From Amoebophrya sp. A120 (Eukaryota > Protista > Dinoflagellata), in assembly GCA_905178155.1 (NCBI GenBank), contig CAJINV010000001.1, forward strand, positions 9,569,865 through 9,633,864: a stretch of DNA of 64,000 bases, written 5' to 3'. This document shows positions 2,688 to 24,623 of this stretch, one piece after another (positions within the stretch are counted from its first letter, which is position 1; each line of letters begins with the position of its first letter). The notes under the pieces were generated by a model. That model did no database searches, was not told the origin of the DNA, and saw nothing but the letters and a program-made list of their open reading frames with translations. The position numbers were made by a program, and so were the translations under genes.

Positions 2688-4265
2688 CTTTTCAAAGCTT
2701 GGGCTTGGCGACGAGTCGAGTCTTAGTACCTACTCCTCTAGCAATAGCCCTCTGATAACATCATCATGAACTTTCGGGCCTAGACTACATCTTCTAAACC
2801 AAAGAAACCATGGGATCTTTGGCTTGATGAGATACCCATAGGCATAGTACCACAAGCACAACGTTCAAGCTGATGCACACTAACTTGCATCACGGTGGCA
2901 CTGCTCCATCAATTTTTAGAAAAAAAAATTGCTCCTGCAGAACATGTTTATTGCAAATGCAATCACATCGGAAAGCCAAAATAGAAATACCAGCTGCTCA
3001 GAACCTGGATCGCCTTCGTTCTAAAATTGCAAGCTAGCAAAGCTTAAGCTATAAATAGTCATCGTCATGGTGCTAGAGGGATGAAAATGATAAAAAATGC
3101 CACTGCAAAAGCAATTCTTCATATCAGGACCATGACCGTATAAAGGTACAGAAGCAAGATCGTTGCGAAAGAAGGGATGAAAATGAGGATCGCTTCAAAA
3201 GACAAACTGCGGTCGACTTCGACTTCGACACAAAAAGCAACCTTCATCGACTAGCATGAGGAAAGTATCTGTGACGAACAAAGACAACAAAAGCAGAATC
3301 AGGTAGGTCGCGGGCAGCAAAAAAAAATTTGTTGCGGAAAATTTAGCTTTACCTTCAGAACACTGCATAGGGATAAATGCATTTCTTACGCCCGCAGGGC
3401 CCCGCTTGTTGGTGTCACGCCATGTAGCTGTTTCGAAATACTAGAAATATGAAACCTTTTTATTGTGCGCACTCTAACCTAAATCTTTTCAGCGAACTTT
3501 CGCTGGCATTTCTTCTTTGTATTAATTTACAAAAAGCATATCGTACAATACCGCCAGCGCCAGGGCCAGCGAATCAACTATCCCTATCTAAACTTATAAG
3601 ATTAAAGGAGGTTGAGGTTCCCTCCTGTGCGGTTTCTCTAGTATCAAACGCTACATACTGGAGCCTTTTTTTGCAGTCGCAGAGCCTGAACACTTCTCAG
3701 AGAACGACGTGGTGAAGATTGCAGAGAGTCCAACTTTCTTCGGATGAAAGTAAAACATTGATTTTCCCATTGATTCATAGATGATAAAAATGTTGATGAT
3801 GGTAAACTAAACCATACAAAATGAAAGCCACCAAATCTTCTCTGGGCTTTTCACATTCGAAACACAAATCTTCATTAACATATCTTCTATCAAGCCCGAT
3901 CATGTATCAAGACGGGCAACATTATATCATTATTCATTGTCATTCTGACGGACTTTCAGAATAAAACTTCCACACCGAGAGGTAAAACTGTGATGCAGCT
4001 ACCCGTGATCATAATTCCTGCGGCCATTTTTGTCACCCTCGATGTTCAGCAGGCACTTTAGGCAGCATCCATGATCATAGAGAGGCTGCCTGTGCGTCTC
4101 GAACTCGAAGTCAATCGGTGCAGAGGCAAATTCAAATATAAAGTAAACACCGGTCATAAAGCGTCGGCTGCTCCTCGTGCTCCTCAACCCGATTCTACAT
4201 TTCCTTATTGCTAGCAACTATCTCAAGATTATGCCCCCGCGTCCATTTCTTCAGGATAGTACTAC

Positions 4266-4513
4266 TTTCGACAGGTTCCGGCGCAGTGGTACCAGCCAAA
4301 TCTTTTCCATCGGCACCTGGAACAAAAATCATGTTCTGCGGATTTGCCTTCCCACTTGTGTGCATTCTTCCACCATTCGCTGCAAGCCGCCTCGGGATTG
4401 TACCCCCAACTGACGTCCCATTCATCGATCTCAAACATAAAGGGTTTGAAATCGCGTCTCTTCAGCGCGGGTTGCAGCGATCCGGCTAGCCAAGAGCGAT
4501 CATCTTTGTCTTT
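4266..4513 (-). CDS. Probable second exon of the PhyH-like gene (Trp/Cys-rich: KDKDDRSW...CSEWW...CSRCRWKRFGWYHCAGTCRK)
   Basis: TTTTACAG acceptor at 4514, in phase with the 4782 donor; open frame to a GT at 4265. More small exons may follow at about 4000-4160 and 3350-3700. Confidence 0.4.
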
Positions 4514-4767
4514 CTGTAAAATTTCAATAAACTTGTTGAATAGGGTTGTTCATGATGAGGATTATGTCCGATTGGCACCACGATTGCAATACTCAAAAGG
4601 CTTCCACTGAATGAATCAGAAGAACTCGCGGCAAACTTGTTCGTTTTGTGCGTTATTTTTGTTCCTACTTGTTTTGATTTTGGCGAAACAAGATAGCTGC
4701 ACTACCATCAGAGCGACCACGAAAAGTTCGTCCGGATCAGCCGTGCGTAGTGTTTTCAAAGAAGCAA

Positions 4768-6300
4768 TTATGGTACTCGTACCTCTTTCTTGACCCCAAG
4801 CGCATTCAAATTCCAGTAGGTTTCGAAGCGTGAGGCGAAGCGCGTTTTACTGGAAAAGTTCTGCGTGGTCGTGTGAACCAAATTGGGGTGCATCACCACC
4901 AGGTCCCCGGCCTTGACGCCCCATGTGTTGCGGCGCCTCGTGTACCAGGAAAACTCGCTCCAGTGGGACGTGCCATTTTTCGACCTTCCAGCTTGGAAGT
5001 ATTTCAAGGCTGCTCCCGCAGCCGGGCATGACACCTTGATGTTATCCCTGCCGATAGCCTCCTTAAAAAATCTCCACCACCTGCTACCCTGGTTTGACTT
5101 CATTCCGGCCGCACTCTTGTCCGGGTCCGTCTCTTTCCACCACTTCACGCGGCCTGGGTAATCATCCCACCGGTTGGCCACACGGTTCCGCAGATCCGCG
5201 ATGAGGTACCAAAGCAGCTTGTGAGACTTGTCGACGATCCCCGTGCCGCCACCGACCGGAGTCTCGATATCGCGGTAGATTGGCAATGTCACCAGTGATA
5301 GCGAGTGCATATCCGACCAACCATTCAATTTGGGGAACTGCTGCCAGTTCCAACCGTTCTCACCTGTCTCGTCCGGTTCCAGTGTCTGCTGGTCAATGTG
5401 CCAGTGTTCACCTTCCTGAGTTTCGCGCATTGCCGCCTCACTCCACGGATCGTGTCGACGGGCATTTTTATCAACGGGATAGCGCAGCGTCCACCTCTTT
5501 TGCACGCCGTTGCTTGGGGTAAACGCAAGACTTTGGTCGGGCACTGCCTCCCCGTTGTCGTCTGTTTCCTGCGTGATTGCTTGTTCGGACTGGAGCACCC
5601 AATAAGACACCTCGTTCGCATCTTTTGCCTCTCTACCGTCCATCCGCAACGGCAGCCGTCCGTTTCTCTGTCCGTGCACACGGTCGAAAAACTTTTGCAC
5701 GATCGGAGAGAGCGCCAGTTCTTTTTCGGTCCAGATGATCTTTTTGCTTTTCGCCTCGTGCTCTCTTTCGGACAGGAGCTTCCACCCGCGGATGGCCGGA
5801 TGCTTCTTCGCTACCTTTTCGCGAATTTCCTTCTCCACCTTCGGCATCAAACGCTCCATTTTTTCCGCAAAGTTCTTCGTTTCCGTTTCGAAAGTGTCGC
5901 GTGTCTCCCACTCGGGAACGCGAACATGCTGCCATGTATCGGCGTACGGCCGCGGCTCGTCATTCATTGCCTCCCTATTCGAGGGAATGACGACTTTTTC
6001 GACGTACTCCTTCACCGCGTCTTCGGGACGTTTCGTGCTGCCTTTCTTAAACTGCGGGTGGTTTTCCGGCAGGCGACTGCCGCCGAACGCACGCGGAATC
6101 CGCACCCAGCCTCGCTCTGCAAACGTTTTAGCGAGTTTCTCCACTTCCTCGTCGAGATGCGCCAGGTAAGTCTGCGCGTCATCAGACAGGTGCCCCTGCT
6201 TGCTCGCCACGGTCAGAGCGGCTGACGGGGTTACGGATGTTGACATCAAGATACCAAACGCCGTCCAATAGACAATAAACACAGCGACTTTAACCTTCAT
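4768..6300 (-). CDS. Phytanoyl-CoA dioxygenase (PhyH)-like 2OG-Fe(II) oxygenase with hydrophobic N-terminal signal peptide (main exon)
   Basis: Motifs FAERGWVRIPRAF, HWHID (HxD), GGGT and GDLVVMHPNLVHTTTQNFSSKTR (distal His, Arg) are typical of PhyH-family enzymes. ATG at 6300. A probable donor GAG|GTACGA at 4782 suggests further exons downstream. Confidence 0.7.
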   Translation of the reverse strand: MKVKVAVFIVYWTAFGILMSTSVTPSAALTVASKQGHLSDDAQTYLAHLDEEVEKLAKTFAERGWVRIPRAFGGSRLPENHPQFKKGSTKRPEDAVKEYVEKVVIPSNREAMNDEPRPYADTWQHVRVPEWETRDTFETETKNFAEKMERLMPKVEKEIREKVAKKHPAIRGWKLLSEREHEAKSKKIIWTEKELALSPIVQKFFDRVHGQRNGRLPLRMDGREAKDANEVSYWVLQSEQAITQETDDNGEAVPDQSLAFTPSNGVQKRWTLRYPVDKNARRHDPWSEAAMRETQEGEHWHIDQQTLEPDETGENGWNWQQFPKLNGWSDMHSLSLVTLPIYRDIETPVGGGTGIVDKSHKLLWYLIADLRNRVANRWDDYPGRVKWWKETDPDKSAAGMKSNQGSRWWRFFKEAIGRDNIKVSCPAAGAALKYFQAGRSKNGTSHWSEFSWYTRRRNTWGVKAGDLVVMHPNLVHTTTQNFSSKTRFASRFETYWNLNALGVKKEVRVP

Positions 6301-7428
6301 CTTCAAGAAAAGATCTTTGAAGCAAATACCGTGAGAGAAAAAGCTTTTATGTATGCCGAGGGTCCAAATTTGTTCAAAATAATTGGAAACGCGTCAGCCA
6401 GTTGAGCGAACTAGGTGTGGCGTTTCCCAGATGTTTGGCGAGCAGCAATCCAGCGCTTGCGATCCACACTTGTCCTCAACAAAGTAAAGTATTTCTATTT
6501 ATTGCGCGCATGCTGGCATGACAAGAAAAACCTGCGATACCATCAAGATGTGAACCTCGTCCATCAGCTCTCTTTTGTTTTATAGCTCAAGACTCTTCAT
6601 TTATGATTAAGCATGATACACATCACGCATGCAGATCTCATCGGTCTGGATCGTCTACAGTAGTTCAGCAGCTGCTTCTTTCTCTTTGCTCAAGTTCAAG
6701 ATCCTCGCATCGCATAAATAGGAAAGAGATCTACGACGTCTGTCTGAAAACATCATAATGAAGTTCAAACTAAACATCTCGAAAAATATAGCATTGCATC
6801 ACCGACCTGTCTGCCGATAATATTTCGAATGCGCAAAATTACTTTGTTCCACCGTGCTGCGCGTAATCCAGGGCCCAGCTTCTCGGCGCTGACGCTGAGT
6901 GCGCCACACTGAGCGACATATAAAGCCTGACCGTTTTCATCAATGTTAGCGCTTTCGTTCTTCCCGTCGATCTATGACTTATGGATCTAAGTACTTTAAC
7001 TTTTGCTGCTGGAACATTACTACGCAGTGTTGCCACGGATATGTTGCATCAATCCCGCATCTTTACATTTTCAGATGTACGAACGGAACTGAAGTCGTGC
7101 ACTGTGTCTTTTTCCCTTGAATTATGATTATGACGCTTCTACTTCTATTTTCTTCTTACATTCCTCTATCGTATTCCCACACCTCTTTACTGCTTTCAGC
7201 TCAAAAAGGAAACGAAACTAAACAAGCTTAGACCACTTACACATCACATGCATATGCACATAACACACCTGAATTTCTGCTGATAAAACAGCTCATCAAA
7301 TCAGGCCTGTCGGCTGAAGATGTAGATGTAAGTAACTTAAGATAAAGAACTATTGAATTTCGACGAGCTCCCACGCTCTTCGACTTTTCAAAGCGACATA
7401 AGCTGCGCAGCAATAAAAACTTTTACTT

Positions 7429-7773
7429 TCATACTGCACTCTTGGTGTTCGCGTTAGCAGCAGGGCCCTCCGAAGTAGTTTGGTCTTCCTCTGCTTCCTT
7501 CACCCGGTTTCCACTGGTGTCGAAGGGATTTGACGGGTCAAACAAATGCTGCGCCATCCCGTGCTGGGTTTGCATCCGGATATACAACACGCAGTACACC
7601 AGAAGGCAGACAGCTCCGATAGTCACTGCACCCTGAGTAACGAAATAGATGCCCGCGATCATCAACAACGCTTGGATTCCGACGTCGCGGAGGCATCCGG
7701 GCGTGGCGTCTTCCAACGGGTTCACGAAAACACGGGTCCGGGGAAGCAACGGCTCCTCGAGGGATGTCGCCAT
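7429..7773 (-). CDS. Small hypothetical membrane protein (114 aa, two hydrophobic helices)
   Basis: ATG-started ORF in the common gene orientation; hydrophobic stretches IQALLMIAGIYFV and AVTIGAVCLLVYCVLYI. Confidence 0.55.
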   Translation of the reverse strand: MATSLEEPLLPRTRVFVNPLEDATPGCLRDVGIQALLMIAGIYFVTQGAVTIGAVCLLVYCVLYIRMQTQHGMAQHLFDPSNPFDTSGNRVKEAEEDQTTSEGPAANANTKSAV

Positions 7774-8267
7774 GATTACAGATTGTGCAATTTATTTTCT
7801 TCAAAGATAATATCTGTAAAAAATCTTCTTCGTCTTCTTGAAGCTCTAGCTCTTTTTACCGCTCTACTAACATCCGAGAACAAAGAGAAACAGAAACAAG
7901 CCCGCAAACTGAAGACAGCAAGAGCCAACCTGCTCTACACCTCTCTCTACACTTCGAAACTGGTTGGCACTTGTGCGCACCTAGGGGCTAAACGAACAGA
8001 CACCTCCTATGGTGGTGATGCCGTATCGAAAACGAAATGGTCTTCAGATACAGCTGAAGATTAGCCGCGTTCGCAAAAAGACGCGCCAAATGGAGACGGC
8101 TTCAATTCCCTCTCCTGTTGTGCTCACCAGAAAAACTGTCTCAAAATTTTGTGTTTGTAGAATCATCGTGCTCATATTGAGATTCAAATTTGCGACGAGT
8201 TTCAATTGCGGCGAGGGCTCGTTCCCCTTTCCTTTTCGCCTTGCTCTCGGCGCAGCGTATCTATCAA

Positions 8268-11200
8268 TTACGAATGAGCGCGCACTCCTTCCAGGGTGGC
8301 TTCTACGAGATCGATGTCTTCTTCTGAAAGCTTGTACCTTTTGATCCACAGTTCCCACAGCCAATCAAGGTCGGAGGGTTTGCCTTTCTTATGGTGCGAG
8401 CGGAACTCCTGCACGAGCTCGAGAGTGTCGCCCAGCGACTCGAGACAAGCCCGGTCCCTTCGTAAGGGTAATGGAAAAACGAGTGCTGATGCTGAAGGTG
8501 AACTCCGAGTAGAAGAAGTCGCCGTGGTCGACTCCGTGCTGTAATCAGAATCGCTCGTGCAGTCGGAATTGTCATCGTCGCTCTCTACTCCTCCACTCGA
8601 GACGCTAGACGAGTCGTCGGACTGCTCGTGTTCCACGTCGCACTCGTCCTCACCTTGAGCACCAAGTACGACTTCTGAAGCAAGCAACTCGCTCGCTTGT
8701 GCCGCGAAGTAGGAAGAGGTCTCCGCATCTGCAAAACGATGAGTCCATTTCCACAAGATCGCGGAGGATTTGCGTTTGCCTTGTGATTCTAAATGCTTGC
8801 CCCAGACCTCCTGTCGTTCTTGTGACTTCGCGAGCTCCAGGAAGGTTTGCAGCTTCTTCCGCTCCTTTTTTTTGACCTTGTTTTTCGACTTCGTCTTTTC
8901 ATCCGCAAGAGCTTGGAACTTTGCGGACTCCTCGTCCGTCAAGCTATCGAACTCACGGAGCAGGGCGAAAATGCGGACCTCATACTTCGGGAAGAACTCG
9001 TCCAGGTCTCCGGAGAACAGACCTTTGCGGTACGCGTGGACTTCACGCACTTGGTGTGGCAAGGTTGCCCCCTCGTCGAAGCCGTGGAAGTCGAATTTCT
9101 CGAACCAAGTGGTGATTTGGTTTCGCATCTTTTTCCAATCTGCGAATATCGCCGAAGGAGTCAAATCCCTGCGGTTCGGGTTGCACACCTCACGCTCCGG
9201 TTTCCCGTCCCCCATATCAACGGTGGTGCAGTACGGCTCCGAGGAAGCGTCGTCGACAAAATTGCTTTCCAACCAGTCCTCCATACAAACCCCATTGATT
9301 CGAATCGTTTGAATCGCCACGAGAAGCTCATGGCACCACAACCGCAGTACTTCGCGACAAACCGAAGTGACTGCGAAACACCCAAGGCACATTGTTGCTC
9401 GGCCCGTCATGTTGCATTTTTCTGGCACAATGTCCGCGTCCTTATGCGTCTGGCACATGCGGTAAAACAAAATCACGGGGGCGAAAAACATGAAGGCGAG
9501 ATGCGTGGCTTCGTGGTAGTATTGCTTCGACTCGCAGTCTGTGCTGGGGGTTCTCTTGACATTCCATTTCCCGGTTCTGAATGGTTGGTTGATTCTGGTT
9601 GCGTAATGTAAGGCACGGAGCAGCAGGAATGATGATTCGCTTGTAAGGACCGCTGTATCTATCGCGGAGTCGACTAGGTTGTATCGGTCCATACAGCTGC
9701 ACAAGCGCGTGCCCCCTGCGTGGCCGGATACACGGAAGGCATCGTACAGAGAGAGAATCACAGATTCCCATCCAGTGTTTGTGATCAAGAGCTGTTCGTT
9801 CCACAAATTCTTTAACGGCTGTTGAGGCATGGAGTTGCCATAGCCGGGAAAAAAGTTTTTAAGGTTTTTCGCTCCAACGTCCGCGATCTGGAAGAATGGG
9901 TCCGCCAATGTCGCCACGAGAAAACCCGCGTTAGCATTCTGTTTGTCCTGCGTCAGAGCTTGCCTCGCAAAAGAAGACCGCTCAATGATTGTGCTGCGTT
10001 GGTGGTTCCAAAGATATTCGACCATTGCAGAGGTGCCCAAGACCGCCTTGCATTTGCTCTGGATCTGCGACATGAAAACCAAAACACTGCGTAAAAAGCT
10101 AAGCGACTCACGTTGGGCGAGATATTTTCTCTGCATCTTCTCCACATCGTAACAATCTGGACACTGACAGTCGTTCAGTTGGCGAACTTGCGTCATCGTG
10201 TCCTCCGCTGTGTCGAATGCCGCTGCGTAAACAGAGGCGTCTTCGAAAATTTTGATAATGTTGTCCACGTAAGTCGAAGTTGTCGCTGCCGTCATTTCTG
10301 GTAATTTGCCCACACCAGCTGTGGCACGCTTGCGCGTCGTTTTTCGCTCCTTGGAAGCGATTTCGGAGCCGAATGCTTCGTAAACATGATACGCGAGCGC
10401 TTCACTGGGAGGCCATCGCATGGAACTAAGACTCAACACAAAGTGCGGCTGCAACATTTCCACAAAGTCGGATACGGAAATTAACCGCCACACGGTAACA
10501 AGTTCTTCAAAAAGGAAAGCCACTTGCAGCACAACACGCCGTTCTAGTTCCTCCAAGGTGATGTTATCCAGTTGCTGACCCTGGGCTGCTGCGTTGACGT
10601 GTCTGACTCGAAGTCTCCCCGCCGTCTCAATCTGCTTCTTGTGATCCCTCACCAACGCGGCCACGAAGTCCTTGCACGTGCTGCCGATCCTGCAAGAGTC
10701 GCGCTCGCGCCACCAAACGCTCCTCATCTTATCGAGGTACGCGAACACTTTTTTAATGCACTGCTCTTGGTCATTTGCTCCAAACTCGTAGTGCGTCAGC
10801 GCAAGCTCCTGTAGCGCATTGACATAATAAAACTCGAGGTCCTGCAGACACGGCAGCGCTTCGTCAAATCGCGGGCGTTGCTTTCTGTAGCTCTTGAGTA
10901 TCGTGGACTCCAGAAGCGAAACTGCACTGGCGTACTCACCTTTACCGAAGAAGACCAAAACTTTCTCTTCCAGGTCAGAAAAAGTTTTTTGCTCCGCTGT
11001 CAAAGCTGTCTCTCGCCTGGCAGCTGCGGCGACGTAGAAGGCTTCAACGTCCTCAGCTCGTTCGGAGTAAGTCAATGCAGTGACGGAGCGGTCAATCCAC
11101 GGCTGAGGAGCGACGGCTGCGATGTGTGAAGATGTATCCAGTTTTCCCGTTCGCTCTCGCCGACTCCTCGTGGCCATCCGCCCATCCTGCAGCGGCTCGT

Positions 11201-11444
11201 CTGGGTGTCGCGCATCAGTTTGTCCGTCTTGTTGATACCGCGTCACCACTTCCACCCCTTCTTCCGCATGCTCTATACTTTGCAGCACATGCCGCAAAAC
11301 ATCAATTCGTACTTTATGATCGTGCACGGGCACTGGAATCCGGCCATGTCCTTCTCGGTGCAACATGTGATGGGACCCGCGAATCGTTTTCACCGACCAC
11401 CCTTTTGCGTTGCAGAGCCGGAAAACCCTGTCGGAACGGATCAT
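8268..11444 (-). CDS. 1058-aa intronless protein with N-terminal HicA (YcfA)-family mRNA-interferase-like domain followed by a large helical region
   Basis: Residues 1-58 MIRSDRVFRLCNAKGWSVKTIRGSHHMLHREGHGRIPVPVHDHKVRIDVLRHVLQSIE show the HicA pattern GW-x5-RGSH ... (V/I)PxH ... C-terminal helix. The remainder is helical, with a TPR-like segment (GKGEYASAVSLLE), a CQCPDC motif and an acidic/Ser-rich stretch near the C-terminus. Confidence 0.75.
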   Translation of the reverse strand: MIRSDRVFRLCNAKGWSVKTIRGSHHMLHREGHGRIPVPVHDHKVRIDVLRHVLQSIEHAEEGVEVVTRYQQDGQTDARHPDEPLQDGRMATRSRRERTGKLDTSSHIAAVAPQPWIDRSVTALTYSERAEDVEAFYVAAAARRETALTAEQKTFSDLEEKVLVFFGKGEYASAVSLLESTILKSYRKQRPRFDEALPCLQDLEFYYVNALQELALTHYEFGANDQEQCIKKVFAYLDKMRSVWWRERDSCRIGSTCKDFVAALVRDHKKQIETAGRLRVRHVNAAAQGQQLDNITLEELERRVVLQVAFLFEELVTVWRLISVSDFVEMLQPHFVLSLSSMRWPPSEALAYHVYEAFGSEIASKERKTTRKRATAGVGKLPEMTAATTSTYVDNIIKIFEDASVYAAAFDTAEDTMTQVRQLNDCQCPDCYDVEKMQRKYLAQRESLSFLRSVLVFMSQIQSKCKAVLGTSAMVEYLWNHQRSTIIERSSFARQALTQDKQNANAGFLVATLADPFFQIADVGAKNLKNFFPGYGNSMPQQPLKNLWNEQLLITNTGWESVILSLYDAFRVSGHAGGTRLCSCMDRYNLVDSAIDTAVLTSESSFLLLRALHYATRINQPFRTGKWNVKRTPSTDCESKQYYHEATHLAFMFFAPVILFYRMCQTHKDADIVPEKCNMTGRATMCLGCFAVTSVCREVLRLWCHELLVAIQTIRINGVCMEDWLESNFVDDASSEPYCTTVDMGDGKPEREVCNPNRRDLTPSAIFADWKKMRNQITTWFEKFDFHGFDEGATLPHQVREVHAYRKGLFSGDLDEFFPKYEVRIFALLREFDSLTDEESAKFQALADEKTKSKNKVKKKERKKLQTFLELAKSQERQEVWGKHLESQGKRKSSAILWKWTHRFADAETSSYFAAQASELLASEVVLGAQGEDECDVEHEQSDDSSSVSSGGVESDDDNSDCTSDSDYSTESTTATSSTRSSPSASALVFPLPLRRDRACLESLGDTLELVQEFRSHHKKGKPSDLDWLWELWIKRYKLSEEDIDLVEATLEGVRAHS

Positions 11445-12237
11445 CTTTTTTCTTTTGGGAGTGCTTGAGAGTCCGTCCGTCTCTATCTACGAAATCTAAA
11501 TCGCTTGTTGATCGAGACTATTCCTATAATTAGATTTTCAAATGTTCTTCACTGCCCCAGCGCTACCAACAACACGACAAGGTAAAAACGGCCAAACATG
11601 AATGGGTACTACAGAAGCCATGGGCATCTCGAAACACCACGAAAATGTGGTCATCGTCCTCTACTACACGTACTTATTGTGGCGGACTGCAAGTCGTGCA
11701 ATACATTCCTTGACACAAAACCCAAATACTTGCGATTATGAACATTGCGCTGGCCTTGTTAATGACCTATCCATTTCATCATTTCTTTTTCAGTTCTATT
11801 TCTATGAAATTCACACCAATTCTTTGTCTTTTTGGTTTACTTTTTTTTCCTTTGTGATTTCAACCTGAATGAGGAGAGTCTGAGAAGGAGAAGCAACAAC
11901 AATAGCATTGATCCAAATATCACAAACAGAAACACGACAACGTAAACTCGTACACTGTTTTACATACATTTGTTCGATCTTTGCGAAAAAGCTGCACACT
12001 GCATCATCTTCTCTTAAGAATAAGAAGGTTTGGAGGGGTTTGAAATACTTGATCGCCTCATCGCTGCGAAAAATCGCCTTAGTTGTATCTTGGATTGATT
12101 ATTTCTATCGCTATGAAGCTTTCGATAATTCATGTTGATGGGCGGCTTCCCAGATCCCGAAACAAGCGATGATTTTTCCTGAAGCTCCTTCCTTGATAAA
12201 TTCTGGGCGGAATATCACATACCTGTATCTTCTACAA

Positions 12238-15200
12238 TTATTTTTTCAAGAAGAACTGACCGAGAAAGTCCTCATTCCGCTTGTGGATCGGGTCGTCTTC
12301 CGCCAGTTTGTGCCGCGCCTGAACCTCCGTCACCACGTCTGCCAGGGCTCGAATTCGTTTCTTCGTCGGTGAGGCGGAGTTGCTGGTTCCCGGCGAATGC
12401 GACGGCAGCATGAGGTCCTTCATCAGGTCTCCGCTGTCTCCCATCTGCAGAAACCCAGGCTTCTTCCGCGGCGGCGACGCTGACGCGGAGTACTGCTCGG
12501 GTTGCGGACTGCTCTTGTCCGCCCGGAGCTGAGCGAGCTGGCTGGCGAAGGCGGAGTACAAGGGTGAGTTTAGCGATCGATTCAACGCGAAAGCTGCTTC
12601 CCGGGGGCGATTCCGGCTGAGTGGAATCGCCGAAGAACTGTACGGCGAGCTGGCAGAGTCGTTTGCGGTTACTTCTGCAGTTGTAGCTTGTGCTGCGGCA
12701 AACGCTCTCGTAGTCCCCCGGGATTGCAAATCTTGGCGAGCCGCATCCGCATCAGACCGTAAGTGTTTGTCATCGTCGGTCGCAAAAATAGAGGACTTGC
12801 GCGCACGTGGGCCTCCACGCGACAGATTACCCGTACGGGAGGAAGTGCCGCTTGTTCCACCCGGTGTACTAGAGCCAGTGGCCAAATCTAACGGAGAGTG
12901 TGGGCTCTGCGCGTGCGACCCAATCCACCGCGAAGGTTGGTCCGCTTTTCTTGCCTCCAAAATGGAATTGAGCACCTGGGTCGTTGACTCTGTTTCTTGC
13001 CCCGCGGCGTAGCCAAAATTTTGTCGTTGCTCCATTTCTTCTCCGACGGCTGCGTGCGAATTTGCCACTGTCAGTTTTGCGCCCTTGTCGTCTGAACCAT
13101 CAGCATGAGCAGCTCCTTTTCTATCATGCCCAGACTTGACAGCAGAACTTTTACGATTATCCGGTTCCGTCGCGTGACTCGCCTCTGTTGGCGTTCTTCT
13201 CGATGGCAAAGGTAGCGTCATTGAACTTGAGCCGCTCGCACTGGATGCGGAGGATGATGGCACGTCCGTATCAGTGGTAGACGCGTTTTCCGCTGCCGAA
13301 CTGCTGGCGCTGCTGCTGCCACCTCCAGCACTCCCTCGGCCGTGGTACACCTTCTTCATCAGTGAGTTAGAGTTCGCGCCGTCGATTACAAGTACTGAAC
13401 GGCTGCTGGTACCTCCATTGTTCTGGTTTTCACCTCCACTCCATTCTGCAGCATCAGGAACGGAATCCACGTCATCCTGGTTTTTCTTTCTTGCAGCGGT
13501 GGAAACTGCAGAAGAAGAACTACCGTCGACCTTATCTAGTCCCCCCGAGTGGGTCGTGGATGAAGACAGTGGGTTGAAGTAAACAGATGGAAGCGCGGAG
13601 GAAGAGGAGGCACCAGCACCAGGCACGTGCTGATGGTCGTGAGCAGAAACGGAAAGGTGCACGGGCGATTGTGGGGGGGCGCCCGGCACGGCTGAAGAAT
13701 CATTTTCGGCAAGATTTTTTGCAGCGTCGAAGGGAAACGCTGTTGAGCTCCCGCTTGCAGGAGCGTCTGCAGACTTTTCTTCCCGGACGCTCCCGTCCGC
13801 TGCGACGCTGAGCATTGAGACCTGTGGAAGTTTGTGTACTCGTTGCGCGCTATCTTCTCCTTCGGCAACCACCTCATACCCGAGTAGGTTGTTTTTGCTG
13901 GTTCTACTTGAGGACCTACCCGACGGCGAGGAGGAGCTCTTTTGGTCATTTTTCCCCTTTGCTCCGTGCTTGCCCGACGCGCTGGGACTCCCGTCTGCGG
14001 CAGAAGATTTGCCCGGCGACGAGGAATTTCCCCCGTTTGCTGACGTGGAAAGAACGCTGTTGCTCTTCTGAGTCAAAAACCCCTGAATGGTGTCCCGCAT
14101 GCGGGACTCGTAAGCGCGAAAGTCCAACGGAGACAAAGCTGCACCCTTTTGCCAGTTCACGTTAGACACCAGAAAATTCATGTCGTGCAGATGAAACTGC
14201 AGCGTGGTCCCGAGGTAGAAGGGCTTTCCGCACAACGCATCACCAGCGAAGCAGACCACCGTGTTTTGCTGAGGCTCGTTGTCCGTAGTCTGGTTCTCCT
14301 TCGCGTCCTCTTCCGATTCGCCGCCGGAGGAGCTTGGTTTTTCTGCGCGCGGTAGCGTCAGAACAATATCCGGCAACACACCTTGAAACTTGTTGCTCGG
14401 CGAGGATGCATCGCCGCGCTTCGGCGACTGGGAGCCGTTTCTTTTTGGGGAAGAGCTACTGTTTCCATGATCTCCACCAGCGCGTTTCGGTGACGGTGAG
14501 GTGCCTCGTCCGGGGGAAGGGCCAGAAGTCGCAACATGGGCGTTGTTCTGTCGCGGTGCGAGCCGCAGCCCCCAGTGGTTCGCCTCGGTAACATTGACGG
14601 TGATTCCGAACGCCTTCTCATAGTCGATGCTGCTTTCCATCGCGAGAAACAAGGGGTCGCCCGTGTCCGTGTCCACAAAACCCGACGAAGCCATCTCGGC
14701 GAAGCTCTGGAAGTGCTTTCTCTGTGGCTGCGACTCGTCGCCTTCACCGAGCGCCGCAGCGACCTCGTCTAACTCCTCCCCGTCACCGTTTCCATCTGCG
14801 CCGCCCGTTGCCCCTGCACTAGTATCGCCAATCTCTTGTTGCTGCTCTCGGCTGCTCCCATCTGCATGATCGTCCGCCGCCGCTGCTGACATCTTTCTCA
14901 GGGACTTCTTTCCCGCCGCGCTTGTCTTCGCCTGATGATTTTTGCTGGTAACCGCGTGGGACGGACTGCTTGAACCTGCGGCTCCAGTACCACCTTTTGC
15001 GTTTGGACTACCACTCACGTCTTTTGTGCGTTTGAAGATTTGCTTTTCGTACCGCAGCAGCCACACCCAGCCGTACGTGCCGAGCTCGCGGATGATGATG
15101 TTCTCGTTGCGCAACAAAGAATTGTTGTATTTCCGATCCTGGATGGAACGGAACTCCGTGAGATCCTGCTCCACCGGTACCACAGCTCCCGTCGTTGTCC

Positions 15201-17135
15201 CTTTCGACGGAGATGCCGTTGCACTGCTCCCCGTGCCGGTTGCAAATATCGAAGATGCGGAGGAACTACTCCCGTTAGTACTAGTACCCGCCGCGGCCTC
15301 CGCGCTAGCCTGCTTCGCGACGACAGCTAGACTTTTTGGAACTACTGCCCCTCGCTTTCTGTAGCTCAAAATCGTTGCTTTAGTGAGGTTCATCTTCTTA
15401 TGCAAGTGAGACACTGCGCTCTTCCCCGAGCAAACAAAAGCCGCGTCAAACGTGGTGCCGTTGATGTGAAACCCAGGCGGATTAGACGGCTCGATGGAAG
15501 ATCCCGCGCGTTGGTTTTTTCGACGAATCGCGTCCAAGGCGCGACTGCCTGTTGATGTATGTTCATTTTCCTCGTCCTCGTTGTTTCCTGCGAACTTCTG
15601 TTCTTGGTTGTTTTCAAAGAACGAGTCTTCCCACCGGCTCTTCACGACGTCGAAGATCTTCATGTCCAGATCCACGGGGGTATGCCAGTGGAACTTCACG
15701 ATCGGCCACCAGAACTTCTCCAATTCCTGCCGAAGCGTTTTTTCCAACTCCGCCAGCGGCGCACAGGGCGACCATCCGCGCGTCGATTTACTCAAGTGGC
15801 GAAGCAGCAAACCCTCGGTCTGCGTCGACAGCGCCAGTAAAATGCTCCGCGTCCCGTGCTGCTTGTAGGGCCGCTTTTCGTAAATGTGGATACGGAGGAG
15901 GTGATTCTGGTCCGCGCCGAAATTCAGCTTACTGTTGGTAAGGGACATGCTGCGCGCCCGGCGGGGATTAATCGACCGGCCGCGCGGAAAGAGGCCATCG
16001 GCCACCGTGGCGGCGCCAATCGGGCTGTCTGCTACTTTTGATGGAGAGGAGGTACTCCCGCTCTCGGATGGTTCTGGTGTTTTGTTGTTCTCTTCCTTGT
16101 TTCTTCTCGCTCCGCGCGCCGGCGTCGTGACTCGTTGCGTGCTCCGGCTTTGGGGACGCGATTGCGAAATCACGAGTGGTGGCTGTATCGCATTTTGCTG
16201 CAAATCGCCGGTGGTGCGAAGGGGACTGCTAATGGCGTTCGAGTGTGCTCCTGGCGTGTCTGTCCGTTGGTGTTCGATTTGCGCCACAGTACTGCGAAAG
16301 AGCTTCTCCAGCTCATCGCGCATCCGTGCGTGTTCCGGACTACTGTCTCGCCCACTGTCGAGATCCAGTGCATTCTCAGACTTCTTTTCCTCCTTCCCCT
16401 TCTTGTCCTTGTTCCCTGCTCCCCCTTCCGATTTTCCTCGTTTTTTCGAGCGGAAAAAGCCAGCAGCGATTTGACTTGCGAGTAGGTGCTCCTTTCCCTT
16501 CGGATAGTAGTGTCGGCACAGGAGGAGTGCGAGCCAAAGCCCCACGGGGCCTGCGCCCACGATTGCTATTCTCGTGCAGGCCTTCTTGTTGACCCCGCGT
16601 TGAACTTCCGCAATGCGCTCCGCTGCCTGCGCACGCGCTGTCGCCGCTTCTGCAACAGAGACCAAATCCACTGCAGGTGATGGTCGCTGCTTCGCGGGCG
16701 AGGTCGACTGCCGATAGTTAGGAGAAGTTTGGAGGTTTCATCTATGTGGTTTGCGCTCCGCATGTGTATCGTTAGAACATGTGTGTGGCTCCTGTAAAGT
16801 CGAAAAACAAAGGGAAGTCGTCGACAACAGAGAGTTATATATACCTTCTGCTTCGCATTCTTCCCCTTGCTCGCCTTGTCCTTGACGCGTTGTACGGCTT
16901 TCAACACACCCGGGCTCAAACCATCCAACGCACCGGTGGTGCGTGCCAGCATTGGCACTTGCACTTGGTCAACTTCCGGACTTACGCTAAGCTGGTCAAA
17001 ACTGAACACGCTCGACTTCACTGGAGAGTGTCCCGTCAAAGTGAGCGCTGCGTGGTCGGGATCCCCAACGCCCACTTGCGGAGACGCTGCACGCGCGGCG
17101 CTGGGGCTAGATACTGTTTTGGTTCCGGTGAACAT
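12238..17135 (-). CDS. FAD-dependent monooxygenase (PHBH fold, MICAL-like motifs) with very large low-complexity insertions, ~1586 aa, 2 exons
   Basis: Exon 1 16845-17135, GT-AG intron 16708-16844 (CTAAC branch site), exon 2 12238-16707. Motifs: RIAIVGAGPVGLWLALLL (GxGxxG), IHIYEKR, FDAAFVCSGK, FAGDALCGKPFYLGTT. Confidence 0.7.
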
Positions 17136-18060
17136 GATGAATGGCAAGCACTAAACCAAAACCGTCACACTTTAAAGTCAAACACAAAGAGGCCTAAGCC
17201 TAACAAGCCTGCTTCGTGCTCTACAATAAATTAAATCTGCTAAGCAGGTAGAAAGATATATATTCCACCACAGTATGAACGATGCAACAACATCGAACAG
17301 AATGTGAATGAGACCAGCACGAGATGGCGACTTCGATATTGTATTTTCAGAGAACGAGTACGATGTGGCAGCAAAGGATTGCTACATTTTCTACTTCCTA
17401 CATGAGGCTAGCTACAACGAATATATGCATGCGTTGGCACCACTCTGCTTATCTATGTAGTGGGTCTCTACTTCGCAGACACGACGACGAGCAAAACGAA
17501 TACGACTTAGACGATCGTCGATTTGGATTTGACGATGACGATTCGAAGGGGATACAAACATAAAAACAAGGCCAGGCTCCCGTGGTGATTGGTCCCAGGA
17601 AGACCGTGGCGGACGGTTAGGCATATGTTTGATAGCAGCATCAACGTGAATCTACAAGATCGAAGTTTTTACCGTCACCGTCAGTCCTCTTGGTGATCAT
17701 CTCGCAAAGGTAAATCTACAAGCTCCTCTGTGCATTTCCAGTTCTGACACTGACAGTGTTTTTCAAACCAGTCCGTAGTGCAGCTGCTGCTAGTAACTGC
17801 TGGTTGTACTACTTTTCGTGTCGTGAAACTACATTGATTAGGCTTAGTACCTGTTCTGTTCTTTCGCAGAAAGCGAAACAAGATACAGAAACATACGTGG
17901 CTAAGAAATTGATAAAAGTCTATTCTTGAGTTCTCAATACGTGCGGAACTGAAACTCAAGCATCCCACCTCCTCGATAGTCGAGAAAACTGGTTTATTCA
18001 TTTTTCCTTCTACTTCAGAACTTTGTACATTTTTTCACCTCGTATTTCAGTACCCGACCG

Positions 18061-20995
18061 CTACTTCGCTCCCATCAGGTACGCGATGCTGATCCGTGGC
18101 CCGCAATCTTGGTCCATTTTGGGGATGCCGTGGTTGTGGTTTGCGTTCCACTCCGCGTTGAAGTACATGGAACTGCCACTGTGCAGCCACACGCGCTCCG
18201 TCCTCCCCTCGCAACTGTCCCCACAGGGAAGCAAGTGCGAAAATTCGTCCGTCAACGTCTCCATGGTGCAAACCCGACTGCTACCCAGCGAAAAGCACAC
18301 CGTGCCGACACACTCGCGGAAAGAGCACGTGCAGTTCGGGCCGGCGCGCTGTTTGCCACTGTAAATGTCGCGGTGCTGGTCGTGATAGGAGTTTGGGGAG
18401 GGATGAAAGTTGCACTGCACCGCGGTCACGTACCCGGGCGCGTACTTCTTTTCGCAGTACGCGCACAGTTTCAGCATCATGTCCGCGCACTTCCGGCGCC
18501 CAGCCCGCTCCAGCTGCCGCTGCAGCGCCACCATGCTCTGGTTACGGTCGAAGGCGGAAAAGATCAGTTTCCCACCCGCCTTCCAGACGGAACCCTCCTC
18601 CACCGCCAGGGCGGACTCGACCAGCTCCCGGAACAGAATCTCGTCTGCGTTCTTGCCGTACCACTTCCCGAGACAATCTTGGATCGCATCTGGTGGATGT
18701 CATAATCATGATGTACTTAGATCCGATGTTAAGTCAAAGTCGATTTTGGTATTCAAGACTCTTTATCAGTACTGTACTAGTCGATCAATGTTGAAATCAG
18801 AAAAAGAGTTCAAGACAGATCCATTAGAGTGCTATCGCGCCCCAGTGGAGCAAGCGCAGGTAGGCACGTCATGACTTAACCCTCTTCAGCATGAAGAACC
18901 TACGGAAGCAAATTATCCTGTACTTGGAATGAATTCCAAAACTTCGCCTGGATTCTCGTGTACGTTGCAGGCACAGTTCGCACTTGCAGTGCAAGGTGTG
19001 TTGTCGCGCAAGATAGTGTTGTAGTAGTCCGGCGGATGGTTCGCCCCCTCGACACTGCCGGGCTTCAGCTTCTTCAGCGTAAAGGAGCACGCGGCTGCTT
19101 CCGCCTCGTCCGCCGGCGCCTCTGTTGCTGCAGCAGTTACGGACTCGGATGATTCGACCACAGCGCTGGAGGTTCCCGGTGGCTCTACTTCTTCCCCCTC
19201 GGCAAGAACGGAACCAGTAGTCGCACAACTCTCGTCCGCGACACTGGCAGTGCACGAGGCGGAGGCCGCGTCTGTGGTAGAAGCCGCGGCGATGCTAGGC
19301 GTTTTCGCGACAAAAACCATGTTAGCCGAGTTATCCGGCAAGTGGTCGACCTCTTCCTTTACCAGACTCGCCGGCTTCGTCGACGTCACCTTGTCCCACT
19401 GCATCATCTCCCGCAACGCCTCGTGGCTGCAGCCCTCGTTCACGTGCTTCCCCTCACTTTTCAACTTTTTCACCACCATCTATGCATTGCAAAAGTATCG
19501 TACTAGTATAAATTGCATCACAAATTTTTTCAAGAAGAAAAATGGAATTTGTAATGCTGATTTACCCAAAAAGGGATATTTGTCATGCATGATAGCAATT
19601 ACTACGAGTACGATACTTTTGCACAGGATACCATCTCGGCCTTGTCGATGTCGGCGAGCAGGCAACCCGCCACGTATGGATTGCAAAAATGTCTGGGTCT
19701 GGAACGTTGGACCTTGTAATGCTGGTCTTGCATTCCTGTGAAATCTGTATTGCATGACCAAGAACAGTGGTAGCCTCTTATGTCATACAAAAACGCAGCT
19801 TCTCATGCGGAGTTCGTATGAAAAGGCGCGCTGCAACCTTGTCATGCTTTCCTGCATAAGGAAGTGACTTCCTCTTGCACATTTTAGCATCACAAATTTC
19901 CAGACCCAGACATTTTTGCATTTGATACCACGCGCGCCTTCGCAATTTGCGCGACTAAGCTGTCGTAATTGCCCTCGTCGCAGGCCTCGCGCATGGCCTG
20001 CAGCTGCAGCCGTCGCTTCAGCTCCGTTGCAGACGCTTTCCGGATTTTCACCAGAAGCAAGCGCTGGGGGGGACTCGTAGCGGCGTCGGCAATGTCGGCG
20101 AAATCGCCACGCCAGCAGGGGAAGATTTCGAGTTCCGCAGCGTGCCCCTCTTCGGGTTTCTCGGAAAACGCATCTCGCCAATCCCAGGATGGTGCGCCGA
20201 GCGCGGTGAACTTCGTACGGCCGGGCTCACCGACGAAAGCCGTTTGGTTACCGGACCGCGTGCGCGAAAACATGCCACCTGACGTAGTTTTTTTAGAAAC
20301 AAGTTTATGCCTTGCTGTCGCAGCTTCTACTTTTGCGGAAGCATACTCACGGCCCATCATTGCCTTTGGTACTGTGCAACTATCCGAGACTGAAGAGAAC
20401 AAGAATGGCACATTAAATGTAAATCAAAACTATCAGTACCTGAAACCGCCCCGGACCCTGCGGAAAATTCAATCGGATCAAAACCAGGAATGTGCAGACA
20501 TCCACGCAGACCGTTGTAGGTTGCAGTATTTGTGTCCCGAATTCGGTGCGGCAGCGCCTTTCCACCGGTGGCGGAAACCTCCTTTGCCATGGAAGTGGAG
20601 GAAAAGACCTTGACATTCTCCACGTGTTCTAACGAGGAATCGGTCACCGTCACCCGGACCAGAAACTGCTCCTGTTGCACGGGCTGGAATTTCAGGACAT
20701 TTTTCGCAAAAGACGCGAGAGAGCTTGAGCGTCCTGGTTTCCTGCTTCCAGATGCGGCCCCCGTAAGTCCCGCTGCGCTTTTGCTTTTCTTCAAATTTTT
20801 TTTGCTCGTAGACTTTAATGCAGTTACAGGCTCCGTTGCTGCTGCGCTGGAAAAGGGCTGCTCCGCGGAAGAGCTGGAAGCCCCTGCGTCTTCCGCAGTA
20901 TCGCCTTTTTTTGATGCAGGCTCCTCTACGTCCGCGGCCGCAGCGGTGCGGCCGCGCCGAGTAAGGAAGGAACCAAATGACTTTGTGCGCTTCAT
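18061..20995 (-). CDS. AlkB-family (ALKBH2/3-like) 2OG-Fe(II) dioxygenase with long N-terminal extension, ~745 aa, 5 exons
   Basis: Exons 20440-20995, 19928-20389, 19631-19669, 18924-19475 and 18061-18689 total 2238 nt, in frame. Two introns are GT-AG and two are TIR elements. Motifs: VLEFIPNAI, CNFHP...HDQHRD (HxD), SLGSSR, LHSGSSMYF...NHGIPK, PRISI. Confidence 0.75.
19481..19630. mobile_element. TIR MITE/introner, family B copy 1 (150 bp), within the AlkB-like coding sequence
   Basis: Ends TATGCATTGCAAAAGTATCGTACTAGTA and (reverse complement) TATCCTGTGCAAAAGTATCGTACTCGTA; flanked by 5-bp direct repeat CCATC (19476-19480, 19631-19635). Confidence 0.9.
19675..19927. mobile_element. TIR MITE/introner, family A copy 1 (253 bp), within the AlkB-like coding sequence
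   Basis: Ends TATGGATTGCAAAAATGTCTGGGTCTGGAA and (reverse complement) TATCAAATGCAAAAATGTCTGGGTCTGGAA; 5-bp TSD CCACG (19670-19674, 19928-19932). Removal gives KARVAGCLLADIDKAEM. Confidence 0.92.
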
Positions 20996-22254
20996 GGATG
21001 GAGGTATTGGTGCGATTCTGCTTACCAACAAAAAACGCGTCGACTACAAACCACGACAAATGCCTGTCGGATAGAAATAAGAAGAGGCCTCAATGACACA
21101 TCATATCACCACGGAAGATCAACGACGATTGGCGGATCAACCAACGACAACGATTCATGGAGTTGGAGAATCATTAGTGAAGAGACAAAATAGTTGAACT
21201 CTTGTCAGTGTCAAGGAGCGAAAGCGAATGCGAATGCGAAGCAAGTATATCATACGAAAAGCACGACGATAAACAAGCCGACTACGATTTCGATTGGAGA
21301 AGGTGCGAGAAAGCGACAACGAAATACATGTCCATGAATGTTTCGGCAGCTGAGGACAGCCTTATGTATGATTTTGAACTCCATCAAAATTGCTCACTAC
21401 TGACCAGCGTGCTGCCAGGTGCGCCAGCGGAGGGCCAGAGCTTGTGTCCTTTGATTTTTTTGAAACTTGACTTCATGAGCTTAAATCTACTTCTTGTTTT
21501 GGTTGCGTTGCGAGCGTGCCGGTGACTGCGAAGAAAATCATATCATCAAGGTTCATATAACGAGAGCCGTCTCGCGGTATAGCTCCTTGTTCGCTGGTCG
21601 TTTGAAAGTCTTGCGAGTTGTACTTGTATGGAAGTGTAAAAGTAGCCTTGGTCGCAGTAGTTTGCGGATTTTTTTCCGAGCTTGCGAATCCAGCAGACTG
21701 TAAACAACGCCACCAGTGGTGTCCTGGATGGCATTGTTGACCCAGTCGCGATATACTTCAAAAACGATGGTCGTAGTTTTTCCTATCCGTTTTTACATAT
21801 TTCACAAAAAGATTCTTAGAAATTCAGCTGAGAAAAGCAGGTGGCATTCAGGTTCATTTTTCTGCGGAATACTCCTTTCGTTTGAAGTTGTCTCATATAT
21901 CGCACACCAGATCTAGACCTGCTGACGGAAACGTTTTTCATCCAAAGGTTTCGTGCCTTGATATCATCTAGAAAAAGAGACGAGAGACCAGGTGTCCTAG
22001 CATTTAGATAGAGAGATGAAGTGTAGCGAATTGCAGTAGTAGAAAATCGATTTTAAACAAATGAAGGGACTAAGAAGTTGCCTTTGTAAGCTTTTTTTTT
22101 CTCTTCGTACAGAGAACCAAAGCTCACTGCTTCAACTTCTTTCTTTCCTTTGAGAGCAGCGTTCTAACTGAAAATGAACTGACGGAGGTATCGTACTGCC
22201 TTGATGTAGAAATCTTACTTCTGTGTCGTGCTGCGGTACTACTGCAACTGCGTC

Positions 22255-24623
22255 TTACGCGGCGGCAGCGGGGGCTTCCTCGCCACCAGCCTTCTTCTTG
22301 TTGGCGCGCTTTTTCCTCGGGGCGACCGACTGGGTGAGCAATTTCTTAAGGCCTTCGTCCTCAACGGTGTACCCAGATTCCAACACATCCGACTGAGCAA
22401 ACGGGATGCCGGTGATCTTCTTGGTGCCGCCTGTCAAATGATGGTAAAAAGGTGGAATGAAAAAATGATCGGGCGTGACACACCATGCGGAGCAAAAATG
22501 GAGTGAAGTAAAGGAATAGCAAGGCGCTGCCAAAGATTATGTTCTTGTTCATCGATTTCAACAAGAAATCCAAAATTCCTTACCTGGCAGCAGCAAGACG
22601 GTGAATTTGAACTGGGCGATGTATTCTCCCGGGCGCTCCGCCAAGACTGGGTACTCGTGCAACAATTGGTGGCGCTTCGCCTCGGAAACACCCACCCGAG
22701 CGCACTGCTCGTCCTCAATATTGGCGAGGGAGAAGGGCAAAGACGGGAACCGCTTGCCGACCTCGGAAATAAACTGTCTGGCCTTTGTCGTCTTCAAAAT
22801 GTACTGGTTTTCCTGGGCGCGCTTGTAGACCTGTAGTTTCAGTCGATGCAGGAATTCCAAATTGCAAGAATGAATGTGGCGTAGTTATGCAAAACAAAGC
22901 TATCGCACCTTCGACGTGATGAGAAAACTACTTACTCGTCCATCGAGGTGGACTCCTGCTTAGCTTTTTTCTCATGCAAACAAGAAAGCATGCAATTGCA
23001 TCAAACACACGAAGCCGAAGCACATCTCGGAAATGCAACTGGATAATACGGTGTGTCGGCACTCCATTTCCTTGGTCTTTCCATCGCCGGAGGAGAGCAT
23101 AAGATCCAGGGTGTAGGCCTGGTTGACTTCGAATTCGAACTCGTCGACCTTGTCGGTGTCGGTTTCTTTTCCCAAAATCGTCTTCTCGTCGTCAATTACG
23201 TGACGCTTCAGCAAGTGAGAGAGGACGCCTGTTTTTTCCAAAAAAGAAAAGTTTTTTTCCACAACAAGTTTACACAGAGGCGACAACAAGAAGAAACAGA
23301 CTCTTCTCGCTTCTAGTGCAAACAAAATGAATGGCACAATGCAAGTTCGTCCAAAAAAATCGTACCTGCGACCGGTTGGCACTTGAATTCATCGGCGGAT
23401 TTCTGGATGACTTGGGTAACTTGGGTGTTTTTGTTGCCGACCTGGAGGTAATTATATTTCATTTTGATTTTTGTCGAACATCGTAAGGCGAAAAAAAATC
23501 ATTTCCAAAATCACTGGACTTGGTATTCCAAGAAGCACAATGTTGCGCGTCTCCGTGTCATATCACCACACCAGACGATAATTAAAACCCTCCAATTGCA
23601 CATCGTTTAAATATCACACCTGCATCATTCTGACAGCAGCTTCTGCGGCGGTGTAGGCGGCTTGGACGACATCCGCTCGGCGATCCGCGACCTTTCCGGC
23701 TTCGTTCAACTGTCCCTTTTGGCTTGGAGAGTCTCCCTCACCTGATTTTTTCGTTGTAATCTGTGGAGGGCCTGCTGCTGCTGCTAGCGCTATCACGAGA
23801 GATAATCCGGGGGCAGCAGAAAAGCAATACGTACATTTACATACAAAATCAGGTAACAGTAAGTACCAGGCGGGAGCAGAATGGTGTGCGCGACCTGAGC
23901 GATAAAGCCGTCGATCTGCACACCAAGGTCGACTTTGACGATGTCTCCGCTGCGGAGCGGCTTGGATTCGCCCTTCAGTGGACTCATGTGGCCCGCAATC
24001 TCGTTCACGCTCACGCACGTCGGGAACCCAATGCCTGTAAATTCGCATTCAATTTCAATTTCCGGTTTCCGGATCAACATCAACGCAACACCAGTCAGAC
24101 TCAGAGCTCAATGCTAGAATTGCAATTGACATGGAATACGAACATTATGCCTAGTTGTAATTACCTTTTTCCATCTTTTTTCCCGCATCCTGCTTTTTGT
24201 TCTTGGAGTCTTTCTCTTCAGCTTCCTCGGTTTTTTTCACCTTTTTGTTGTATACCTTCCCTGTTTCCTCCAGAATCGTGTCGTCGCCTGTTGTGGAGAC
24301 ATTTTCATGTAAGTTTTCCCGTGTTGAAAAGTATCTCTTGTTCATGCCCATACGAACAAGGAAACGTACTTGAAACAGGATCAGCAAGGAAAAAATCTTT
24401 TCGAGAAGGGCATCAAATGCGCCCACTCCTGCTACTTGAATCATCTCTTACCGAGTCTGCAGAGGTCGAAGACCTCCACTCCCTCCTTGCACGCGCCCAG
24501 GACGACCTGCAGTGCCTTGTTGGCGATGTCCGCCGCCGTTCTGTATTTTGTGCACACATCCGGGTTTTCCAGGGTAAACTGCTCCTGGTTTTCCTGGCCG
24601 TCGTCACTGCGATCGCTCGACAT
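22255..24623 (-). CDS. PA2G4: Proliferation-associated protein 2G4 / EBP1 (M24 peptidase-fold ribosome-associated protein), about 8 exons
   Basis: Exon peptides: NPDVCTKYRTAADIANKAL, GDDTILEETGKVYNKK, EKGIGFPTCVSVNE..GDIVKVDLGVQIDGFIAQVAHT, RADVVQAAYTAAEAAVR, GVLSHLLKRHVIDDEKTI, FEVNQAYTLD, RFPSLPFSL..GVSEAKRHQLLHEYPVL..AQFKFTVLLLP. All introns are GT-AG. Confidence 0.93.

Follow-up and report, generated by a model that had tools for sequence, protein, structure and literature searches.

The HicA proteins are the toxins of the type II HicAB toxin-antitoxin systems (PF07927), which are treated as prokaryotic in the literature (PMC2701414; this and the other papers cited by PMC number are drawn on here in part). 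In the solved HicAB complexes the antitoxin HicB masks the catalytic histidine of HicA (PMC11594946), and HicB packs a helix on the HicA sheet (PMC10865869). Here we describe a gene of the dinoflagellate Amoebophrya sp. A120, lying on the minus strand at 8268..11444 of a stretch of 64,000 nucleotides that was analysed as a whole (the window; contig CAJINV010000001.1, positions 9,569,865 to 9,633,864), whose product, P0001, carries a HicA domain at its extreme N-terminus. P0001 shares with the type II HicAs, such as that of B. pseudomallei (PDB: 4c26, 6g26), the fold, the Gly-Ser-His loop, a second histidine and a basic charge, but differs from them in being eukaryotic, in deploying HicA as the N-terminal domain of a protein of 1058 amino acids (aa), in the lack of a HicB in the window, and in a distinctive Arg46/Asp48 signature. 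With 1058 aa, as against the 50-100 aa of a stand-alone toxin, and with no HicB, it is neither a type II HicAB module nor a HicA-HicB fusion.

The survey of Gerdes (2024; PMC10865869) recognises 14 HicA contexts, including fusions to HicB and SMC; in the part of it used here all of them are prokaryotic and no eukaryotic class appears. Its classes 11-14 (HicA-HicB and SMC-HicA) are likewise single-gene fusions, some with large helical partners, and were proposed to be cis-regulated defence toxins; however, they are prokaryotic, their partner is HicB or SMC, and HicA is C-terminal in classes 12-14, whereas in P0001 a TPR-like partner, negative for HicB by hidden Markov model (HMM), follows HicA. 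CapRel(SJ46) and EzeT, as presented in the same source, share the proposed logic of a toxin at one end of the chain, N- or C-terminal, restrained in cis by an antitoxin domain which can also serve as a sensor, but their toxin chemistry is different, their hosts are bacterial and the trigger of CapRel is known, whereas inhibition in P0001 is only predicted. Our literature search found no paper on HicA with Amoebophrya and, with subscription papers and bioRxiv supplements outside its range, none on eukaryotic HicA fusions; the terms HicA, PF07927 and YcfA are absent from the one supplementary file of PMC7789003 and the 10 of PMC6176090. The membership of the domain in PF07927 is already tagged in the database, and is in itself known. 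Automatic annotation also lists HicA-like domains in other eukaryotes, for example fungi, which would make a eukaryotic HicA less surprising, though not the architecture. An analogy can be drawn with RNase L and Ire1, in which a latent RNase is coupled to a sensor or repeat region for triggered translation shut-off, but their nuclease fold is unrelated to HicA and P0001 has no kinase domain.

We consider the chances evenly balanced that P0001 is a single-chain, autoinhibited HicA RNase. Its likely role is that of a defence or shut-off switch, the defence component being drawn from the known role of HicA and the divergence of the paralogs. The order of its parts is HicA, linker, long helix, TPR-like module, divergent helical body and acidic/Ser tail, as follows:

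8268..11444, minus strand: open reading frame (ORF) of P0001, 1058 aa under the standard code, intronless, with a transcript contig across it
11265..11444, minus strand: HicA domain, aa 1-60, with a dsRBD-like α-β-β-β-α arrangement, recovered by PF07927, PHROG 353, AlphaFold2 and Foldseek
11370..11378, minus strand: Gly23-Ser24-His25 catalytic loop, present in 14/14 fused-type domains (the family treated below) and 57/57 prokaryotic HicAs
11385..11387, minus strand: Thr20, at a position that is Arg in 13/14 fused-type domains and 52/57 prokaryotic HicAs, the departure within the family being found only in P0001
11115..11246, minus strand: disordered, poorly conserved linker, aa ~67-110, pLDDT <50
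10941..11108, minus strand: conserved segment, aa 113-168, made up of a (V)LAT-x-E-like motif and a long helix, with HicA contacts predicted at 130-145 and 156-168
10584..10940, minus strand: helical module of TPR-like build, aa 169-287, in which the D202/F205/Y206 helix is conserved and predicted to contact HicA
10152..10169, minus strand: CxCxxC motif, aa 426-431, its CxC aligned in 5 relatives
8745..10583, minus strand: divergent helical body, aa 288-900, with no detectable homology even to the family
8490..8657, minus strand: acidic/Ser-rich low-complexity stretch, aa ~930-985, seen in the sequence
8108..11758, minus strand: single transcript-derived contig of 3651 nt from run X5

The HicA domain is genuine and of the prokaryotic type. 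The original prediction, made from the letters of the window alone, had recognised a HicA pattern in residues 1-58, with GW, RGSH and VPVH, which do lie there (at 15-16, 22-25 and 38-41), and profile as well as fold comparisons now bear it out. The Pfam search that it called for, run on aa 1-100, recovers HicA_toxin (PF07927) at aa 7-56 with 29.3 bits (E 9.1e-7), above the cut-off of 27; on the full protein the same model gives 24.9 bits (E 2.3e-5), below that cut-off. An HMM built from 48 prokaryote and phage HicAs scores the domain at 51.9 bits, as against 14.2 for the best shuffle (5000 shuffles, 4953 reported) and -0.5 for the reversed sequence, and scores P0001 at 45.3 bits as against 7.9 for the next best of the 1522 six-frame peptides of the window; because the 48 HicAs had been selected for their resemblance to the query, this control is generous and the margin inflated. 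AlphaFold2, with a 47-row alignment, yields the α-β-β-β-α fold at pLDDT 90-96, and Foldseek, the structural check also suggested there, matches it to the solved HicA 6g26_F (probability 1.00, TM(target) 0.73, rmsd 2.3 Å, 58 columns, E 0.076). HicAs are the only solved sequences matched by P0001 (E about 0.05), its top plasmid matches are annotated HicA toxins with 35-40% identity, and the best prokaryotic identity, 44% over aa 2-58, is to a Gallionellaceae protein (L019); at the level of BLAST the bacterial HicA matches are weak (E 4e-4 to 0.1). Searches with NCBIfam and PADLOC gave no match for P0001. A Pfam hint of Tox-REase-3 at aa 830-881 (E 0.096) was not seen in the relatives and was rejected as noise.

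The domain belongs to a larger family. A phmmer search of 1.84 billion representative proteins retrieved 15 relatives at E <=0.001, 13 of which have an N-terminal HicA (12 of the 15 above the Pfam cut-off) and two of which lack it as called; among the 13, nine are proteins of 430-1574 aa and four, on short contigs, have 93-263 aa. Four of the relatives are named Amoebophrya sp., the eukaryotic origin of the other 11 being assumed from their architecture, and we infer a minimum of five paralogs in the genome. In the tree the 14 fused-type domains fall on one side of a branch with support 100/99, apart from 57 prokaryote and phage HicAs; this tree, reduced from 126 rows to 71 at 80% identity, has 63 columns, draws on a set chosen by similarity to the query, and is unrooted, leaving a donor unnameable. 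Within it, the domains named Amoebophrya fail to group as a clade (AU p 0.014), which makes the duplications old in comparison with the remaining members of the family. The paralogs share ~20% overall identity and have unrelated C-terminal parts. It is likely that the fusion was domesticated by a eukaryote from bacteria. Of the two origins first suggested, a domesticated or a horizontally acquired toxin, domestication stands, but a lone recent transfer does not fit the diversified family and the host-like codon use.

The tandem pair P0014 and P0002, with consecutive gene numbers on one contig, aligns over ~770 aa; the P0014 model is without HicA and may be either truncated at its 5' end or a stand-alone module. 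In P0013 a short beta-rich, SH3/KOW-like tail occupies aa ~470-530, of a kind that occurs in dinoflagellate and haptophyte proteins; it hints at a family that reaches beyond Amoebophrya. Word-index homolog searches returned only P0001 itself and miss the family that phmmer found; the ESM Atlas furnished only leads, with best scores of 0.76 and 0.87, and scanning metagenomes with full-length P0001 brought up no relative. Three scans of viral contigs with the family pattern gave 0, 5 and 0 loci and no fused-type member; the three distinct loci inspected are ordinary HicAs of 66-82 aa, the contigs of L152 and L153 carrying the same HicA as L151, and two further matches from a separate search were set aside as chance. 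Foldseek against viral structures gave no match at E 0.001.

Across the family the catalytic loop is uniform. G15, G23, S24, H25, V40 and H41 are kept in 14/14 domains, and helix 2 bears a family signature of Arg46 (13/14) and Asp48 (12/14), the latter at a position that is Gly in 52/57 prokaryotic HicAs. Two features expected of a HicA are absent in P0001, the Arg before the loop (T20, specific to this copy) and the Gly at the start of helix 2 (D48, family-wide). Neither is reported as essential in the parts of PMC11594946 and PMC12297915 used here, and according to the same sources the equivalents of Gly22 and His24 are essential in the Burkholderia and Neisseria HicAs. The domain has a net charge of +6, with Lys19 and Arg22 beside the active site and Cys in place of Leu11. 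Linker identity within the family is 10-25%, and its contrast with active-site residues kept in 14/14 points to selection on the active site.

The usual partner of HicA is missing from the window. HicB adjoins HicA at 121 of 140 prokaryote and phage loci, and a HicB profile built from the neighbours of such HicA genes scores four annotated HicBs, as positive controls, at 69-85 bits. Among the 1522 peptides of the six-frame translation of the window it finds no match (best E 1.4), in agreement with the initial remark that no small HicB-like ORF lies nearby. Inside 17 family proteins its best score is 2.2 bits, with no match listed for P0001, and the model of P0001 over aa 126-345 is all helix, with no HicB partial RNase H domain by HMM. 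The notion that the (V)LAT-x-E helix is a remnant of HicB gained no support from the HicB HMM and was discarded.

Instead, the helical module at aa ~113-290 is predicted to clamp HicA. ESMFold2, run with no alignments, places aa 110-345 on aa 1-64 with a score of 0.70 (runs 0.69-0.73), as against 0.01 for the best control, with the runs sharing at least 68% of contacts and a partner pLDDT of at least 79. Among microbial pairs, 51 of 78 solved and 2 of 108 mismatched ones come up to the mark set for this score, and among eukaryotic pairs 71 of 105 solved and 2 of 126 unrelated ones. The modelled interface joins HicA residues 22-25, 27, 33-37, 39, 41 and 47-57 to body residues 130-145, 156-169 and 198-213; Gly23, Ser24, His25 and His41 belong to the confidently predicted interface residues, D48, V49 and L50 also lie in the interface, and on the body side D202, F205 and V133 (Tyr in most members) are conserved. 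The predicted clamp resembles the masking of HicA by HicB, with an unrelated partner. The original prediction had proposed that the 1000-aa helical body may act as a cis-inhibitor or sensor; cis action has the support of the model (0.70 vs 0.01, with His25 in the interface), but the role does not extend to the whole body, for only aa ~113-290 form a conserved partner.

This module is conserved in its own right. Without HicA, leave-one-out HMMs recover it at 35-123 bits in 10 of 14 members (P0001 at 74.5), reversed sequences reaching at most 6.7. The distance from the end of HicA to the next motif varies from 43 to 146 residues across 12 members, and the long helix proper comprises 43 residues (aa 126-168). 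The matches in the VIA comparison are mostly of TPR type, the best being the BamA-BamD fusion 5efr (Z 11.2, rmsd 2.6 Å, 106 aligned, aa 147-264), no clear family match, as Z 11.2 falls short of the ~13 attained by helical repeats through their shared arrangement; Pfam TPR gave no match in P0001. Detectable homology stops at aa 271-298, the CxC motif aside. Further on, the CxCxxC motif is a possible metal site and a Lys-rich stretch at aa ~850-865 a possible nuclear signal, both judged from sequence. The single-sequence AlphaFold model of full P0001 was unusable (pLDDT 38), and aa 471-1058 are without a reliable model.

In mechanistic terms, the module at aa ~113-290 would stand in for HicB and keep HicA in check. 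Once the protein changed its conformation or was cleaved, HicA would be able to move away on its variable linker. A trigger would release the clamp and only then would RNA be cut, the fast-diverging C-terminal ~700 aa, different from one paralog to the next, perhaps acting as a sensor or localiser. In conflict or stress the protein would cleave RNA and shut off translation cell-autonomously.

Several observations weigh against this scheme. The most confident contacts involve strand 3 and helix 2 (aa 33-37 and 49-60) and not His25, so that the contact may serve the structure of the protein and not its inhibition. The conservation of the body interface is not enriched (27 positions at 0.46 vs 103 others at 0.76 within aa 120-250, permutation p 0.85), nor are the changes between the family and prokaryotic HicAs enriched at the interface (p 0.43). 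The pLDDT of the body chain by itself is 54-59, and the module is weak in four members of the leave-one-out test (3.8-12.3 bits). The ESMFold2 mark was calibrated on separate chains and not on two parts of one protein, and the existence of solved HicA complexes makes recall by the model possible. The absence of HicB applies to the window, and the genome outside it may encode one. The Thr at the position of Arg20 is specific to this copy. Finally, neither the viral-contig scans nor PADLOC gave a match linking the family to viruses, defence islands or immunity.

The gene itself is well defined. Its start is the first in-frame ATG downstream of an in-frame stop, and seven relatives begin within one residue of Met1 of P0001, so that the start codon had been placed correctly. 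The 3651-nt contig of run X5 crosses the whole ORF with 0 gaps, 0 differences and no intron, and runs X3, X4 and X6 cover the ORF piecewise; X3-X6 are four runs of one sample whose RNA nature is a guess that splicing supports, and their contigs reveal neither true ends nor strand. By these runs the gene is transcribed. Three raw RNA runs, X9-X11, gave 0 reads on the stretch, an outcome that does not bear on transcription. X5 also splices an intron at 22429-22583, and has no cover across 12296-18935. In the DNA run X1, a 19,604-nt contig matches 3000-19507, the gene together with its spliced neighbours, without difference; X1 is perhaps the source of the assembly, and is then not independent evidence. 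The prediction of an intronless gene among intron-rich neighbours holds for the gene by the X5 contig, but not for the neighbours, which include uninterrupted ORFs of 1361, 1233 and 2113 aa; among the joints listed only two spliced introns occur in 3000-22900, the minus-strand GT-AG introns 4513-4783 and 22429-22583 of the RNA contigs. The HicA part has a third-position GC content (GC3) of 0.57, as against 0.51-0.79 in eight neighbours, and a value similar to the codon adaptation index (CAI-like) of 0.67, as against 0.65-0.81; no flanking repeats of note were found around the gene. A recent transfer was rejected on these grounds, and any transfer must be old because codon use is host-like.

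Some features around the gene deserve mention. The minus-strand leader at 11599-11782 has nine upstream ATGs with short ORFs of 6-38 aa, if the transcript begins near 11758-11782; these could possibly dampen the translation of a toxic gene, a point on which the contigs cannot show starts. The downstream neighbour at 7429-7773 (minus strand) encodes 114 aa with a hydrophobic middle and a weak DUF5313 match (E 0.01), is not HicB-like, and has RNA contig cover in X3 and X4 and none in X5 and X6. All ORFs >310 aa in the window (1-64000) are on the minus strand, forming a unidirectional gene cluster, and such clusters have been described for Amoebophrya (PMC7789003). Two adjoining elements at 19481-19630 (150 bp) and 19674-19928 (255 bp) resemble miniature inverted-repeat transposable elements (MITE-like), each with 36-nt terminal inverted repeats that are similar between the two; their summed contig depth in DNA run X1, up to 288,696 as against ~45 around them, marks them as very high-copy. 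They lie between the ORF pieces 18913-19479 and 19890-20360, which may be one interrupted gene.

The alternative that survives best, although we regard it as doubtful, is a domesticated housekeeping or developmental RNA-processing enzyme, in which HicA and the helical module would fold constitutively as one and bind or cut a particular RNA, the TPR-like part conferring specificity or bringing in partners instead of inhibiting. The strongest predicted contacts, which avoid His25, and the lack of enriched conservation at the interface speak for it, as do transcription, host-like codon use and the lack of a mobile or defence context; on the other hand, Gly23, Ser24, His25 and His41 do figure in the confident interface, and paralogs with 20% identity and unrelated C-termini would fit conflict genes better. 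It is unlikely that the family is functional but this copy weakened or catalytically dead, an RNA-binding or decoy paralog. Thr20 for Arg, Cys for Leu11 and a Pfam score near the cut-off would be accounted for in this way, but Gly23 and His25, essential in other HicAs, remain in place with Lys19 and Arg22 beside the site, the charge is +6, and the ORF is open and transcribed.

Amoebophrya is a parasitoid of dinoflagellates (PMC6176090), which raises the prospect of a host-directed effector, delivered to the host cell or nucleus, where HicA would be unmasked and host RNA degraded. Four relatives are named Amoebophrya, in line with this. Effectors typically multiply into paralogs and diverge rapidly. 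We nevertheless regard this reading, which the original prediction had also raised, as improbable and without support, as HicA begins at Met1 and no hydrophobic N-terminus was found in P0001 (maximal 19-residue hydropathy -0.19) or in 7 of 8 long relatives, in agreement with the earlier statement that a signal peptide is not visible. The tail of P0013, of a kind that occurs in free-living algae, also speaks against an effector. An artefact, whether through contaminating bacterial DNA, an assembly error or a motif arisen by chance, for which the full-length Pfam score below the cut-off and the weak bacterial BLAST-level matches could be cited, is hardly credible and we count it as refuted, given the 19.6-kb DNA contig with spliced neighbours, the one RNA contig that spans the fusion, the recurrence of the architecture in nine long relatives and the fold matches.

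Returning to the autoinhibited RNase, a bolder extension that we advance tentatively is that marine protists, Amoebophrya among them, possess a family, so far undescribed, of immune switches that combine toxin and antitoxin in one gene. HicA would have been acquired once and furnished with a new TPR-like cis-antitoxin, it would then have expanded into paralogs, and their divergent C-termini would sense different viral or host triggers, with death or arrest of the cell as the outcome. The RNases of type II toxin-antitoxin systems are regarded as prokaryotic; if the reading is true, P0001 and its family would represent a toxin of such a system that a eukaryote has domesticated, an antitoxin of independent origin having replaced HicB, and would offer a lead on cell-autonomous defence or programmed shut-off in the Syndiniales, which are abundant marine parasites.

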